Positions 3,864 to 62,041 of a stretch of DNA of 64,000 nucleotides are shown piece after piece. Both the position numbers and the translations under genes were made by a program. Position 1 is the stretch's first letter. Every line of letters starts with the position of its first letter. The DNA lies in contig JACPPH010000003.1 of the NCBI GenBank assembly GCA_016191105.1, forward strand, positions 15,492 to 79,491, written 5' to 3'. The notes under the pieces are model-generated. The model saw only the letters and a program-made list of their open reading frames with translations, ran no database searches and was not told where the DNA came from. The stretch is from Candidatus Saccharimonadota bacterium (GTDB lineage: Bacteria > Patescibacteriota > Saccharimonadia > CAILAD01 > BJGX01).

Positions 3864-3977
3864 GCTAGTCTAATTCTACGCTTTTTGATCGGTAAATTCC
3901 AGATCGGGTTGACGCAAAAAGCTGTGCAGGCGTATGCTTAGGCTGTCCTTAACAACCCGAGGCTCTAAGGAGGCCAC

Positions 3978-4352
3978 ATGGACGAAGCTCCGCTAGGTCC
4001 CCTGCCGGGGACAATGCACATCTACCACTGGCGCGAAGAGGGCAAGCCGGTGCTAGACGTTTGGTTTGTTCGGCCTGTACGGCTCAGAGGTATTGGCGAC
4101 CCTCGATTGAGAGAGTTCGGCGAGCACTACCTGGACTACTACACGCCCAGTGCCCCCAGGTTCCGACCCAGTCACTTCGACACCGTCGAGGGCATCGACG
4201 GCCTGCGTGATTGGCTGAATGCCAACGACTTCTTCGCCAAGAAGTGCAACGAAGTCGTTGCGGCCGTAACCATCTGCTGGTTCATCACCATCTCAGACGA
4301 GTCCGACACCCAACCCATCAAGCCTCAGAGCCCACACGAGCGCCCTGCCTGA
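3978..4352 (+). CDS. Hypothetical protein (124 aa) on a GC-rich (~60%) island
   Basis: Canonical AGGAGG SD 7 nt upstream of the ATG, strong GC3 bias, no recognisable domain. Divergent from the RM gene. Confidence 0.5.
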   Translation: MDEAPLGPLPGTMHIYHWREEGKPVLDVWFVRPVRLRGIGDPRLREFGEHYLDYYTPSAPRFRPSHFDTVEGIDGLRDWLNANDFFAKKCNEVVAAVTICWFITISDESDTQPIKPQSPHERPA

Positions 4353-4373
4353 GCTCACAACATGCGATCTACC

Positions 4374-4414
4374 AAGAAGCGACCCTTGCTTTCTGGCGGG
4401 TCGCTTCTTGATTT
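4374..4414 (+). terminator. Stem-loop terminator-like element after the GC-rich ORF
   Basis: gaagcgaccc...gggtcgcttc makes a 10-bp inverted repeat, followed by cttgattt (weak T-run). Confidence 0.4.
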
Positions 4415-4512
4415 AAACTAGATTAGGCTTATCGATTAGTATGTCTATGCATTGGCTTTGGCCCCATAATGAGCATGCGATCGAATGGCGCCGGAATGTT
4501 GTTGTCGCGGGC

Positions 4513-4908
4513 TTACTGCACCAGCGCCAGGTGTTGAGCTTTAATAGCTGCTTGCCGGTCTTGAGATGACTTGTCTTTAAGGCTATCGGCAAAGCTTTTG
4601 AGCTCATCGACCTTTTGCAAAATAGCCGATTTTTGAGCCTCGCTAAGATTGCCATCTTTAACGGCTTGAGTTAGGCGCGCTTCGAGCTTGGCCCGGCGGT
4701 CTTGTTGCTTTTCGGCCCGAAAGTCTTGAACCCGGCTTTGCACGTCGTCGTGATTGAGGTGAAAAGCCGAAGCAATTTTATCTACTAGGTTGGGCTTGTG
4801 CTCAGAGCTGTTGGCCGCCATGGCCGGCACTGCTCCGGCTAGCAACATTACACTAGCAGCTATAGCCACGGCAGTGACTTTGGCTGATTTTTTGAGTTTA
4901 GACTTCAT
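4513..4908 (-). CDS. Secreted hypothetical protein (131 aa) with Sec signal peptide
   Basis: GGGGAG SD. The N-terminus MKSKLKKSAKVTAVAIAASVMLLAGAVPAMA-AN is a typical signal peptide with an AxA site. The mature part is Lys/Gln/Ala-rich and helical. Confidence 0.55.
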   Translation of the reverse strand: MKSKLKKSAKVTAVAIAASVMLLAGAVPAMAANSSEHKPNLVDKIASAFHLNHDDVQSRVQDFRAEKQQDRRAKLEARLTQAVKDGNLSEAQKSAILQKVDELKSFADSLKDKSSQDRQAAIKAQHLALVQ

Positions 4909-5042
4909 AATTAAGCTCCCCGTTAAGCTGTGTGGTCATAATAACTAGCTAACCGCTGGTCTGTGACATTACTGATCATGATTGACTCCGCCAGACCAAC
5001 AGGTATAGCATGGGTGTATAAAATAATGAGGAGTAACTAACA

Positions 5043-59417: not shown

Positions 59418-59504
59418 ATACTTTATACTACCAAATTAGTTGATAATTACTAAACCAAAAGAGCCTCTGGAACGAGGCTCTTTATTATATATAAGAATGT
59501 GCTA

Positions 59505-60146
59505 TTACTTTACAAACACTACTATGCTGGCACCTTGGGGCGCAGCTTCACCAGCTGGCAAGGCACCGACTGTGGCGCCAATGGCCGCAGCTACATCTTG
59601 AGCCACCTGGCCGTTCTGGCCACTTACATCGACCACCGTTAGGCTCTTAACGTTGGCCTTATTCTTGGCATCGGTGGTGCCGGTTACACTAACCTCGTTG
59701 GCTAGTTTACTCGAGAGGGTATTCTGAACACTGCCTACATCGCCACCAGCATTCACAATTGCTACCGGTACAGCGTTTTGGTTAATCGCGATCGGGCCGA
59801 CATTAATTAGCTTGTTGTCTTTGGGTCGGTAAATAATCGCCTTTTTAGCTTTGGTGTAGATCAGAATCTTGTCGCCATTTTGAGCATTGGTAAAGAACGG
59901 CTGATCTTTGAGCTTGTCTTTGTCAACTATTGTAGCTACCGTTGGCGTCTCATCGGTAGGTAGGGTTATGAGCTTGCCAACCTGCTTAACTAACACATCG
60001 GTTTCTTGTTGTGCGACAGCATTTGGATTTTGTTTAATCTTTTGATATTGCAAGTAAAAATAGACCGAGGCCACACCTAGCAGGACTATGAGTACACCCA
60101 GAACAATAATCAACACCATATTGGTGTTCTTAGATCGTTTTTCCAT
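59505..60146 (-). CDS. Membrane-anchored LytR_C (LCP C-terminal-like) domain protein
   Basis: N-terminal TM (MVLIIVLGVLIVLLGVASVYFYL). C-terminal VAIVNAGGDVGSVQNTLSSKLAN...VSVTG...NVKSLTVVDVSGQNGQVAQDVAAAIGATVG matches the LytR_C pattern (V.VLNG....G.A..........G..V............T.V). Confidence 0.5.
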   Translation of the reverse strand: MEKRSKNTNMVLIIVLGVLIVLLGVASVYFYLQYQKIKQNPNAVAQQETDVLVKQVGKLITLPTDETPTVATIVDKDKLKDQPFFTNAQNGDKILIYTKAKKAIIYRPKDNKLINVGPIAINQNAVPVAIVNAGGDVGSVQNTLSSKLANEVSVTGTTDAKNKANVKSLTVVDVSGQNGQVAQDVAAAIGATVGALPAGEAAPQGASIVVFVK

Positions 60147-60252
60147 TACAGCTTAAACCCTCTATTAATTATATTTCAAGTATACCCTCTACATTACCTA
60201 AGGCCAGGATAGCTGTCAACCAATTAGGGCTTAAGAGATAGGCATGGAATTA

Positions 60253-60281
60253 TTGACATTCTATTGCCTAGGTACTATAAT
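60253..60281 (+). promoter_or_regulatory. Consensus sigma70 promoter upstream of the sulfatase gene
   Basis: TTGACA (60253-58), an exact 17-nt spacer and TATAAT (60276-81). Both hexamers are perfect consensus. Confidence 0.55.
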
Positions 60282-60359
60282 ATGAGCTCTAGCAATGCCA
60301 CCCTATGCGGCGGCAAAAGCGGAAACTTAAAAACAACCATCTACCGGGGGAGAACCCTC

Positions 60360-61907
60360 ATGAAGCCCAGTCAATCCAAGCGGGTAACGGGGGTTCATTA
60401 CCTCCTTGCCTTGGTGTTGATCATGATTGCGGTCGTAACCGCATGCAACCCAATCATCGTTCTGCCGCCCGACCCAAGCACCACCACCAGCTCGAGCACT
60501 AGTAGCACCACAACTGCTCCACCAATTGTGCCAAGTGGCCAAGGTATGAACGTGCTGGTGATGCTCACCGACGACCAAGGCTGCGATCAGCACGCCACTG
60601 CAGCTCGACCGAACCCGGTACGCTGCGACACAGTCGATGCCTACATGAAGTTCCTGGCCTCGGAGCCAGGTGGGTCGTGGTGGAACTCCACCCAAACTCG
60701 CTACCAGGGAGTGCTCTGCTGCCCCGATCGGACATCGATCCTGACCGGGCAAACCATCGCCCACACTGGCCAGTATGGCAATGGCGTCTGTGTGGCAGAG
60801 AAAGCCGGCGAGTTACCCGAACCATGGCGCACTGCAGGCTACGCCACTGGCTACTTCGGCAAGTACAAGAACTGCTATCCAGGTAGCTCTTGTGCCAAGC
60901 CAATACCATCCGGCTGGGAGCGCTGGGTAGTAGACAGAGCAGCCCCGTCGGGCTACAACTTCGACTACTGCGACCAAGATACTGGCCCGTTCACAGTTGC
61001 ACAGAACGGTAACTCGACCTGGTCGAGTTACTGGTACGGCGATCGTGCCATCGAGTGGATCAACCAGCAGCAAGCGGCCGGACGGCCGTGGTTCACCTTC
61101 TACGCACCATATGCTCCGCATCTTGGTGCAAGCGGCCCGACCGACATTGGCGGGTGGACCACGCCGGCAAATCTGCCCAACTACCGCGAAGGTAATTGCA
61201 AGGGAGCACTGAACACCGATGATTCGGATAAGCCCAGCTTTATCCGAGACAACACCTGTGCTGGCTCCCGCAATGCCGAGGAGGCCGTTAAAGGCCAAGT
61301 GGGCTTGGACAATGAGTTCAAGAAGCTGTACAACAACTTGGCCGCCACCGGCCAGCTCAATAACACCATCATCTTGTTCATGGGCGACAACGGTATGGGC
61401 CTCGGCTCGCACAAGGTGTCCAAGAAGCAGTGTGCCTACGAAGAATGCCTAACCAATCCGCTAATGCTGCGGTTGCCAGGCTCCAGCGGCGGCACGCTGA
61501 ATCGGATGATCAGCAATGTTGATGTCTACCCGACGTTGCTGGAGCTGACCGGCCTCACCACAGCTCTGCCCGCCGATGGGCGCTCGTTTGTGCAGCTGAT
61601 GCGCGGTGACACCACTGGTTGGCGAACCGATCAGTACAGCCAAAACGGGGTGCCCAGCAGCGCCTCAGCGGACGACTTCGACCTAGTTCGCGATGACTGT
61701 GCGGTGCGCACCCCGTGCTACAAGTACACGCAGTACCGCGGCGGTGAACGTGAGCTTTACAACCTCACCGACGATCCGTACGAGTTGGTCAACTTGCTTC
61801 CCAACCCAGTCACCGGCTATGCCGGTCAGCCCGGGTGGGATGACAACAACCCGGTAGTGGTCGAGCTCAAGGCTCGGCTGGCAGCGCATCTGTCAGCTGG
61901 CGCCTAA
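60360..61907 (+). CDS. Formylglycine-dependent sulfatase (arylsulfatase family), probable lipoprotein, on a GC-rich (~60%) island
   Basis: Sulfatase signature C-x-P-x-R in LCCPDRTSILTGQ. Motif II GYATGYFGKY. N-terminal signal with a lipobox-like AVVTAC. GGGGGAG SD. The longest ORF starts at 60264. Confidence 0.85.
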   Translation: MKPSQSKRVTGVHYLLALVLIMIAVVTACNPIIVLPPDPSTTTSSSTSSTTTAPPIVPSGQGMNVLVMLTDDQGCDQHATAARPNPVRCDTVDAYMKFLASEPGGSWWNSTQTRYQGVLCCPDRTSILTGQTIAHTGQYGNGVCVAEKAGELPEPWRTAGYATGYFGKYKNCYPGSSCAKPIPSGWERWVVDRAAPSGYNFDYCDQDTGPFTVAQNGNSTWSSYWYGDRAIEWINQQQAAGRPWFTFYAPYAPHLGASGPTDIGGWTTPANLPNYREGNCKGALNTDDSDKPSFIRDNTCAGSRNAEEAVKGQVGLDNEFKKLYNNLAATGQLNNTIILFMGDNGMGLGSHKVSKKQCAYEECLTNPLMLRLPGSSGGTLNRMISNVDVYPTLLELTGLTTALPADGRSFVQLMRGDTTGWRTDQYSQNGVPSSASADDFDLVRDDCAVRTPCYKYTQYRGGERELYNLTDDPYELVNLLPNPVTGYAGQPGWDDNNPVVVELKARLAAHLSAGA

Positions 61908-62041
61908 GCAGTTATAGCCAACGGGGTATTAGGACCGGGTGGACATTCCTTGTCTACCCGGTCCTCCCCGGGGCGAACTTACAAGACGCTCTACGTTACA
62001 CCAACGTGGGGCTGTTTTTTAATTGAGCGTACAAACTCTAA

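Follow-up and report, generated by a model that had tools for sequence, protein, structure and literature searches.

What are the short, GC-rich islands that interrupt a contig of Candidatus Saccharimonadota, one of them lodged between the cell-division genes ftsA and ftsZ, and where did they come from? The question is raised by a stretch of 64,000 nucleotides from assembly GCA_016191105.1 (contig JACPPH010000003.1, positions 15,492 to 79,491 of the forward strand), called the window in what follows. A sequence-only reading of this DNA had picked out six such regions, numbered here islands 1 to 6, had taken them for foreign, and had named high-GC Actinobacteria as an attractive source. The answer reached here is that the window probably holds independent, horizontally acquired islets, small (0.3-1.7 kb) and placed in intergenic spacers of a chromosome of the Saccharibacteria, members of the Candidate Phyla Radiation (CPR). 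The islets are a further example of a well-known phenomenon, ordinary horizontal gene transfer (HGT), and their donors are mixed or untraced. Those that are intact are single-gene units: one encodes a surface lipoprotein sulfatase, and the products of four are small proteins for which no relatives were detected, two of these being predicted to be membrane-anchored.

Composition of the islands

The GC content of the window is 47.5%. Its native genes (n=44) have a GC of 0.473±0.029 and a GC at third codon positions (GC3) of 0.487±0.050, and the highest native GC3, 0.573, excludes the uniformly high GC3 that would speak against a foreign origin. In a maximal-scoring-segment test (60% versus 46% GC models; 200 shuffles, the 95th percentile of the maximum score being 13.2), four islands stand out close to where they had first been placed, namely island 1 (3956-4404, score 17.5), island 3 (19906-20957, score 39.1), island 5 (31847-33375, score 50.9) and island 6 (60344-61975, score 57.9). 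All four have a GC of ~59-60%. The other two regions that had been called GC-rich fail the test: the ftsA/ftsZ insert, island 2, scores below 8, and the patch at 22564-22757 in island 4 scores 9.1. Composition thus deviates for islands 1, 3, 5 and 6, and islands 2 and 4 need other evidence.

The open reading frames (ORFs) follow the same division. The strong GC3 bias ascribed to all of them is present in four, the 3978-4352 ORF (GC 0.60, GC3 0.74, z=5.0), those at 19883-20260 (GC3 0.80, z=6.3) and 20445-20906 (0.79, z=6.0), and the sulfatase gene at 60360-61907 (0.71, z=4.4), but reaches only 0.62 (z=2.7; GC 52.6%) in the 14786-15253 ORF of island 2. The first 85 codons of an ORF that begins at 33126 in island 5 have a GC3 of 0.78. 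Second-position GC (GC2) is not raised, being 0.36-0.45 in the small island ORFs and 0.51 in the sulfatase, and the GC excess also covers the untranslated regions (UTRs) and terminators of the islands. The pattern GC3>GC1>GC2 and the stop-free length of the small ORFs argue that they are real coding sequences, now or until recently, from a source of ~60% GC. Codon usage pooled over the small islands correlates poorly with that of the native genes (r=0.15) and well with that of high-GC actinobacterial genes (r=0.88), a value that would arise with any high-GC donor; ORF 14786 resembles neither the native genes nor the other islands. The textbook Shine-Dalgarno sites noted earlier are indeed found, as AGGAGG or GGAGG, before the ORFs at 3978, 14786, 20445 and 33126, but those at 19883 and 60360 have GGAG-like sites only.

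A fifth significant segment, at 48439-48766, was absent from the original list. It is an Ala/Pro/Gln-rich linker within a native Big_7-type surface protein and served as a negative control; since it passes the segment test, amino-acid composition can mimic an island. Just such a low-complexity linker is what would be expected were the islands native, lineage-specific genes whose high GC stems from amino-acid composition or gene-specific selection, and the closest relatives available are distant (at most ~70% FtsZ identity over full length). This account is nevertheless very improbable. The excess lies in GC3 (0.71-0.80) and not in GC2, the UTRs and terminators show it as well, a truncated piece of a gene is present in island 5, and another phylum has a gene with 78% identity to the sulfatase. 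For islands 1, 3, 5 and 6 a native origin is largely refuted.

Integrity of the assembly

The source is a metagenome assembly, and reads of a high-GC organism might have been joined into a Saccharibacteria contig during assembly or binning. A second assembly, the Logan assembly of run SRR12113392, bears on this. One Logan contig is 100% identical to window positions 1-25253 (three loci aligned), and so confirms islands 1-4 directly on both sides. The same contig extends by its coordinates to ~54763, with the window's own proteins present there (loci L058/L059); by these coordinates it also spans island 5. Another contig is 100% identical to 57277-60563 and confirms the left junction of island 6, stopping 204 nt inside the sulfatase gene, a break that would favour a misassembly. 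Against it, moreover, every insert has native sequence on both sides within one contig, and the inserts sit precisely in intergenic spacers, with AT-rich promoters. An artefact is extremely unlikely.

Empty sites in related Saccharibacteria

How far the islands depart from the usual gene order can be judged from relatives. When loci with an FtsZ were ranked among GTDB species representatives, the best 50 came almost without exception from Saccharibacteria, and their FtsZ identity, over full length, is at most ~70%, so that no close sister species is at hand. The GTDB species representatives hold no closer relative, and metagenome contigs from JGI gave an FtsA match of 38% only. Twenty-two window proteins were mapped by tblastn onto 51 related loci. 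The housekeeping flanks (SNase, FtsW, IleRS, NrdR, FtsZ, FtsA, Map, Adk, DagK, YbeY, YqeY and RecJ) are kept in 31-51 of these; HisRS, which flanks islands 3 and 4, is matched in only 17 of the 51. Unlike the flanking genes, the island ORFs have no tblastn match in any of the 51 loci. Homologues at the same loci in related genomes, looked for as evidence against recent acquisition, are thus missing from this set.

The spacers tell the same story. From the ftsA stop to the ftsZ start there are 1022 bp in the window and a median of 276 bp (142-662) in the relatives (n=44). Between yqeY and hisS, rpsU included, the window has 1830 bp and the relatives 253-374 bp (n=17), and between hisS and recJ the corresponding figures are 539 bp and a median of 225 bp (n=13). 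Because the relatives' spacers are 3-6 times shorter and lack the island ORFs, islands 2 and 3 are, on this comparison, insertions relative to the ground plan of the lineage, whatever their GC, and island 4 is probably another. The original view of the islands as foreign is upheld on two grounds together: four are aberrant in composition, and islands 2, 3 and probably 4 fill sites that are empty in relatives, their ORFs being without a tblastn match there.

The ftsA-ftsZ insert

Island 2 is the insertion between ftsA and ftsZ. In the window ftsA (15418-16653, minus strand) and ftsZ (12983-14395, minus strand) are separated by 1022 bp, or 947 bp to the GTG start of the longest ORF, and the plus-strand ORF, terminator and repeat reported between them are all present. 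The insert itself (14617-15417, plus strand, ~0.8 kb) lies between ftsA and the native ftsZ spacer. It begins with a promoter-like sequence, TTGACT-17-TATGCT (14623-14651), followed by a GGAGG-led ORF of 155 amino acids (aa; 14786-15253) and a predicted terminator (15303-15330), all on the plus strand. The ORF is an ORFan, its sole match in 5.8 billion clustered proteins being itself (NCBI HYX70_01500).

Beside the insert the native ftsZ upstream module is intact (14396-14616, minus strand). It contains a putative -35 element, TTGTAT (14528-14533), and a -10 element, TATACT (14505-14510), both on the minus strand and 17 nt apart, a spacing determined for the window alone, together with GAACAC boxes, a GTGGCAAGG element and a Shine-Dalgarno site. 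The ftsA-ftsZ spacers of 13 relatives, compared by eye, show a similar layout upstream of ftsZ with the elements in the same order. Most have one or two GAACAC(A/G)T boxes; a -35 of the form TTG(C/T)AT (TTGCAT/TTGTAT) is followed by a TATACT/TATAAT-like -10; the 5' UTR has a GTGG(C/T)AAGG element plus a hairpin; and in most an ATTAT motif precedes a purine-rich, Shine-Dalgarno-like stretch. A terminator hairpin for ftsA is found in relatives where the length of the spacer suffices. The upstream elements of ftsZ may comprise a regulator site and an RNA element.

It had been proposed that the insertion forces ftsZ to rely on its own promoter. This is not borne out. Every relative already has a spacer of 142-662 bp, and the 13 that were read share the upstream layout, which is intact in the window at 14396-14616; the putative promoter of ftsZ would therefore be the ancestral state in the lineage and not a result of the insertion, the effect of which is at most a loss of read-through from ftsA. 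The idea that the ftsA-ftsZ spacer is a recurrent hotspot for insertions was also considered and rejected, the sole relative with a long spacer (L043, 662 bp) having only AT-rich simple sequence there.

The small cassettes and the mosaic

A recurring plan is met five times among the islands: a sigma-70-like promoter in AT-rich DNA and a GC-rich 5' UTR, usually with a Shine-Dalgarno site, lead into a single ORF, and a hairpin, in some cases followed by a T-run, comes last. The promoters and terminators are predictions, being matches to consensus sequences. Island 1 (3909-4414, plus strand) is a self-contained cassette of this kind, with a promoter-like TTGACG-18-TATGCT (3909-3938), an AAGGAGG (3967-3973) and an ORFan of 124 aa (3978-4352), behind which come a hairpin and its T-run (4378-4414). 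When 1.84 billion representative proteins were scanned exhaustively with HMMER, the ORF at 3978 matched only itself. Island 3 (19779-21112, plus strand) consists of two such cassettes in tandem. The first has the promoter-like TTGACT-17-TAACAT (19779-19807) and an ORF of 125 aa with a GGAG-like site (19883-20260); the second has TTGACT-17-TAGCCT (20366-20394), which lies in an AT-rich spacer, and an AAGGAGG-led ORFan of 153 aa with an N-terminal transmembrane helix (20445-20906), followed by predicted terminators at ~20930-20995.

The products of these cassettes have proved hard to place. ORF 20445 matches only itself in 5.8 billion clustered proteins, and ORF 19883 has no match in phages or plasmids by tblastn or in a scan of IMG/VR. 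Neither the small ORFs nor the ORFs antisense to them have a significant match in Pfam, PHROGs or NCBIfam, and no paralogy was detected among the island proteins. Single-sequence AlphaFold2 models of ORFs 14786 and 19883 have a mean pLDDT (per-residue model confidence) of 43 and 50, respectively, too poor for a fold search.

The DNA next to island 1 has a character of its own. A low-GC stretch (35-41%) occupies window positions 1-3863 and ~1.5 kb upstream of the window (L181 8458-9770), adjoining the island. It contains a 1033-aa Type ISP restriction-modification gene (39% GC) and, just upstream, a gene with a Fic domain and small ORFs. All the window genes up to ~7.3 kb are without a tblastn match in the related loci, except one with two, and the region looks like a variable, defence-type one. 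Still further out, ~1.8-2.5 kb upstream of the window, is another gene of ~58% GC (255 aa, no Pfam match; L181 7018-7785), which may be an additional islet.

Island 4 (22547-22823, minus strand), a small patch of high GC, lies upstream of hisS and has a strong hairpin on either side. The sequence-only reading took it as non-coding. It holds two tandem micro-ORFs on the minus strand, one of 17 aa ending PWDTRNWSHR (22706-22759) and one of 13 aa ending TWNTWSHR (22602-22643), each preceded by a site resembling a ribosome-binding site, GAGAGAA(G/A)GGA. Their final codons show synonymous differences only. The micro-ORFs could encode small peptides or leader peptides; Rfam offers no credible match for the island.

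Island 5 (31847-33375, mixed strands) departs from the plan. Along it the codon-phase GC profile moves repeatedly from one frame or strand to another, and at 31814-32002 (minus strand) there is the truncated start of a J domain, a Pfam DnaJ match to model positions 1-20 of 63. These two observations agree with the earlier description of 31850-33400 as a mosaic of fragments. An ORF of 105 aa (32528-32845, plus strand) has a near-native composition. Further on, an AGGAGG (33112-33117) leads a GC3-rich ORF with two predicted transmembrane helices, which starts at 33126 on the plus strand and enters, in frame and without a stop, the native DUF7768 gene that has its own start at 33436; the unit as a whole spans 33112-34274, and its product may be a fusion of foreign and native protein. 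The public annotation calls two short genes in the island and no more, and its DNA has no match in plasmids or phages. One potential origin of the J-domain fragment, a DnaJ gene beside the actinobacterial sulfatase described later in the text, was rejected: the similarity is that of J domains in general (9 of 20 residues), and the gene is a different one. Island 5 gives the impression of foreign DNA that is decaying or has been rearranged.

A repeat beside two native genes

At their right edges islands 2 and 3 have a repeat of 77 nt in common. The end of copy 1 (15332-15408, plus strand) is 9 nt away from the stop codon of ftsA, and that of copy 2 (21040-21112, plus strand) is 13 nt away from the one of hisS. 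Identity between the two is 93%, with a single indel of 4 nt. Each follows directly, in the same orientation, on the predicted terminator of an island ORF, and the adjoining native gene is convergent. No third copy turned up elsewhere in the window, in an additional 9.5 kb of the contig or in any other locus compared, among them ~50 from related Saccharibacteria.

The first 28 nt of the repeat match the Neisseria Transformation Sequence (NTS), CGTCATTCCCGCGMAVGCGGGAATCYRG, with one mismatch in copy 1 and two in copy 2, where no match is expected. A hairpin is predicted, and the repeat folds better than shuffles (z -2.4 to -3.1). The NTS, as defined in PMC11893778, extends the dRS3 repeat. In Neisseria it is concentrated near variable genes, and the GIY-YIG nuclease SsnA binds and cuts NTS single-stranded DNA (ssDNA), modulating transformation; NTS-like motifs are present in many other bacteria (PMC11893778). 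The NTS is also the core of a Neisseria REPIN (bioRxiv 10.1101/2021.07.10.451892). Many IMG/VR contigs match the hairpin half of the repeat, and among plasmid and chromid records its matches come from Proteobacteria only; the second half has no match in IMG/VR or plasmids.

These resemblances invite the view that, in the manner of the minimal mobile elements of Neisseria, islands 2 and 3 would be cassettes for which exchange takes place where the repeat marks the site. The NTS/dRS3-type hairpin would then serve as a site of recombination or targeting, or would belong to an Ssn-type system for the trimming of ssDNA on its way in. This proposal is improbable. It draws on the placing of the sole two copies in 74 kb, at right island edges, in one orientation and directly after a terminator, on two NTS matches where none is expected, and on the association of the Neisseria element with variable genes and transformation. 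Yet there are but two copies, and four islands have none. The annotated gene lists, which cover the window to ~54.7 kb, contain no GIY-YIG (Ssn), RAYT or IS110-type gene. Each element lies 9-13 nt past the stop of a native convergent gene and may equally be a 3' hairpin like those of repetitive extragenic palindromes (REPs), or a passenger on foreign DNA.

The repeat may thus have arrived with foreign DNA, may form a REP-like hairpin at the 3' ends of ftsA and hisS, or may mark a recombination site. Were it carried in with foreign DNA, islands 2 and 3 would have a common, possibly proteobacterial, donor.

The sulfatase island and the actinobacterial link

Island 6 (60253-61975, plus strand) is the sulfatase islet. 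A perfect consensus promoter, TTGACA-17-TATAAT (60253-60281, predicted), precedes the gene for a lipoprotein-type S1 sulfatase of 515 aa (60360-61907), which is followed by a hairpin. The protein matches Pfam PF00884 with 85.9 bits (cut-off 25) and also PF16347 (SGSH_C). A VTAC lipobox is followed by a Ser/Thr linker, the active-site motif is CCPDR, and the metal-site motifs are DDQG and GDNG, features by which the protein is classed as a formylglycine-type S1 sulfatase. The nearest solved structures are carbohydrate sulfatases (PDB 7p24 and 5g2v; E about 1e-23). The enzyme is like the S1 carbohydrate sulfatases, such as GlcNAc-6-sulfatase and mucin-desulfating enzymes, in its Sulfatase and SGSH_C domains and in the CxPxR, DDQG and GDNG motifs, although its sequence similarity to those of solved structure is distant. 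The window shows no maturation enzyme of the FGE or anSME type. With the sulfatase the epibiont may have gained a new activity towards sulfated glycans at its surface.

Its best match other than itself (P0004) is in an Actinobacteria metagenome-assembled genome (MAG), GCA_016185305.1, with 78% amino-acid identity and 79% nucleotide identity over 1452 nt, at a locus of 67% GC (contig JACPNV010000040, L054 10001-11536). The next relatives are at most 53% identical. Identity of 78% across phyla, with the next relatives so much further away, is good evidence of transfer, and the best guess at the source is an actinobacterial lineage. The gene is a low-GC outlier in the MAG as well (GC 0.60, GC3 0.76, all 15 neighbours having a GC3 of 0.86-0.94), and both genomes may for that reason have received a sulfatase of ~60% GC from a third party. 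The subfamily also occurs, at native composition, in contigs of 44-47% GC (52-54% identity). The ClpC encoded there is far from any solved ClpC or ClpB, and these contigs are possibly from CPR bacteria.

Does this link extend to the other islands, such that all were captured from a high-GC actinobacterial host of the epibiont? The nearest relative of the sulfatase would fit, as would two distant members of its subfamily (P0010 and P0013), which lie on contigs of 67% GC with p450 and ADH neighbours loosely like those of the actinobacterial locus. The Ser/Thr-rich linker after the lipobox is common to both the window copy and the MAG copy, and the codon usage of the small islands, at r=0.88, looks actinobacterial. 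The last point loses its force when any high-GC donor gives the same correlation. Three small ORFs are without a homologue in the libraries searched (5.8 or 1.8 billion proteins), Actinobacteria included; 21 kb of the actinobacterial contig match no island DNA except the sulfatase; and the repeat of islands 2 and 3, whose hairpin is the sole recognizable sequence at their edges, finds its plasmid matches in Proteobacteria only. Two further points against such a host are the compositional oddity of the gene in the MAG and the occurrence of sulfatase relatives in genomes of 44-47% GC whose ClpC is highly divergent. A single actinobacterial host as the source of all the islands is unlikely. The donor suggested by the sequence-only reading is supported in part, by the sulfatase; the libraries searched yielded no donor for the small ORFs, and host-to-symbiont transfer is plausible for the sulfatase only.

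Past island 6, at 62042-63867 on the minus strand, lie three consecutive, overlapping ORFs, rich in Gly, Ser, Thr and Ala and with GC2>GC1. One contains a CSSDERLKTNI… stretch, which may resemble an endosialidase-chaperone (peptidase S74) domain. The three appear to be pieces of a single large protein, of surface or tail-fibre-like type, that frameshifts or errors in the assembly have broken up.

How the islets may have arrived

Independent acquisition of small islets thus remains the probable explanation, and its most likely route can be sketched. A comEC-type DNA-uptake system has been reported in Saccharibacteria (PMC12102498), and foreign DNA may have entered by uptake. It would then have been integrated by illegitimate or microhomology-mediated recombination, and insertions would have survived only in permissive spacers, where they broke no native unit and carried or acquired a promoter. 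The ftsA-ftsZ insert fits this model, because it lies between the ftsA stop and the ftsZ module and leaves the latter intact. Island 5 would represent the decay end of the process. Dedicated mobility functions are not in evidence: Pfam-annotated gene lists covering the window to ~54.7 kb contain no integrase, transposase, GIY-YIG or RAYT gene (54.7-64 kb was checked by listing ORFs and by a Pfam scan of the sulfatase only), there is no tRNA gene anywhere in the window, and no direct repeats flank the islands.

Several points weigh against this explanation. The step of integration is wholly conjectural. Expression of the cassettes from their own promoters is predicted from consensus sites only, and in a 20-kb scan the number of terminators was no higher than in shuffled sequence (28 versus 22 expected) and that of promoters modestly higher (35 versus 23 expected). 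The comparison with empty sites covers islands 2, 3 and 4 only, and the neighbours of island 1 are themselves without a tblastn match in relatives. For the ORFans, foreignness is read from composition and position only. Islands 2 and 4 could be old, lineage-specific sequence, because their foreignness rests on relatives with only ~60-70% FtsZ identity. Finally, in the actinobacterial genome, too, the sulfatase gene is an outlier in composition.

A bolder generalization would have a CPR epibiont repeatedly capturing single-gene, promoter-bearing cassettes, by way of its DNA-uptake machinery, from the bacteria on which it lives or from the phages of these, with NTS/Ssn-like hairpins marking or controlling the junctions. 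It is a long shot. If true, it would mean that an economy of minimal mobile elements in the style of Neisseria operates in Patescibacteria, even within a division-gene cluster, and that the NTS/Ssn-like hairpin system, so far described mainly in Proteobacteria, extends to them.

Features of the native genes

Apart from the islands, in several native genes a TATACT or TATAAT box lies only 6-9 nt ahead of the start codon, and a Shine-Dalgarno site is lacking. Examples are at 6286-6301, 24622-24637 and 54088-54103 and at the minus-strand gene starts at 16653, 44099 and 48149. The pattern TATACT-N7-ATG occurs four times, with 0.36 expected, which suggests that these genes have leaderless mRNAs, unlike the Shine-Dalgarno-led ORFs of the islands. 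The 23S rRNA gene (54613-58158, minus strand) is 3546 nt long, compared with 2925 nt for the model, owing to an insertion of ~600 nt that matches no Rfam intron family and has no sense-strand ORF of at least 100 aa. The 5S gene is at 54181-54290 (minus strand). As no 16S gene is found upstream of the 23S gene, the rRNA genes are unlinked.

Relation to known systems

What the window offers is a documented example of the uptake of foreign genes by an ultra-small, host-dependent bacterium, as tiny single-gene units in a few permissive gaps, with an insertion even inside the otherwise rigid ftsA-ftsZ pair. The insert, the ORFan cargo and an NTS-type hairpin in a CPR genome are the points of interest, and none should surprise a specialist. 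There is a lesson for annotation, in that composition alone over-calls, as with the native linker, and under-calls, as with the ftsA-ftsZ insert. 'Host-derived' is not to be assumed either: for most of the cargo no donor can be traced. In ~74 kb of genome there are two NTS copies, and the gene lists contain no GIY-YIG domain; the hairpin offers a modest lead for research on Ssn nucleases and REP-like repeats.

Among mobile DNAs, the cassettes of integrons are likewise single-ORF units followed by an imperfect hairpin, but those of the islands have promoter-like sites of their own and are dispersed rather than arrayed, and neither IntI nor attI is found. By these features the islets are not integron cassettes, nor, as no integrase or transposase domain, tRNA gene or flanking direct repeats were found, are they classical integrative islands.

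The morons of phages are reportedly units of promoter, ORF and terminator, of deviant GC, inserted between conserved genes (the Hendrix and Juhala literature). With their predicted promoter and terminator sites the islets would share this architecture, as well as the deviant composition and the setting between conserved genes. They differ in lying on a bacterial chromosome, flanked by genes such as ftsA/ftsZ, rpsU/hisS and fmt, with no prophage context, and the islands have no significant match to PHROGs or phages.

The minimal mobile elements of Neisseria are also small cassettes between conserved genes, without mobility genes of their own. Here a near-identical hairpin stands beside two of the islands, and DNA-uptake genes are reported in the Saccharibacteria phylum too (PMC12102498). 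Set against this are the count of two copies, the lack of an Ssn gene in the annotated part of the contig and a second half of the 77-nt repeat that is unmatched. The exchange of allelic cassettes defines the Neisseria elements; the likeness here is one of architecture and position.

Also close are the HGT islets already known in Saccharibacteria and other CPR bacteria, of which the acquisition of the arginine deiminase system is an example (PMC8764695). The present islets differ from these in being mostly single small ORFans and not pathways, with a tentative donor for one gene. They have in common genes of foreign composition and phylogenetic affinity within the reduced genome of an epibiont, and in both a newly acquired function, here one enzyme, could widen the range of substrates.

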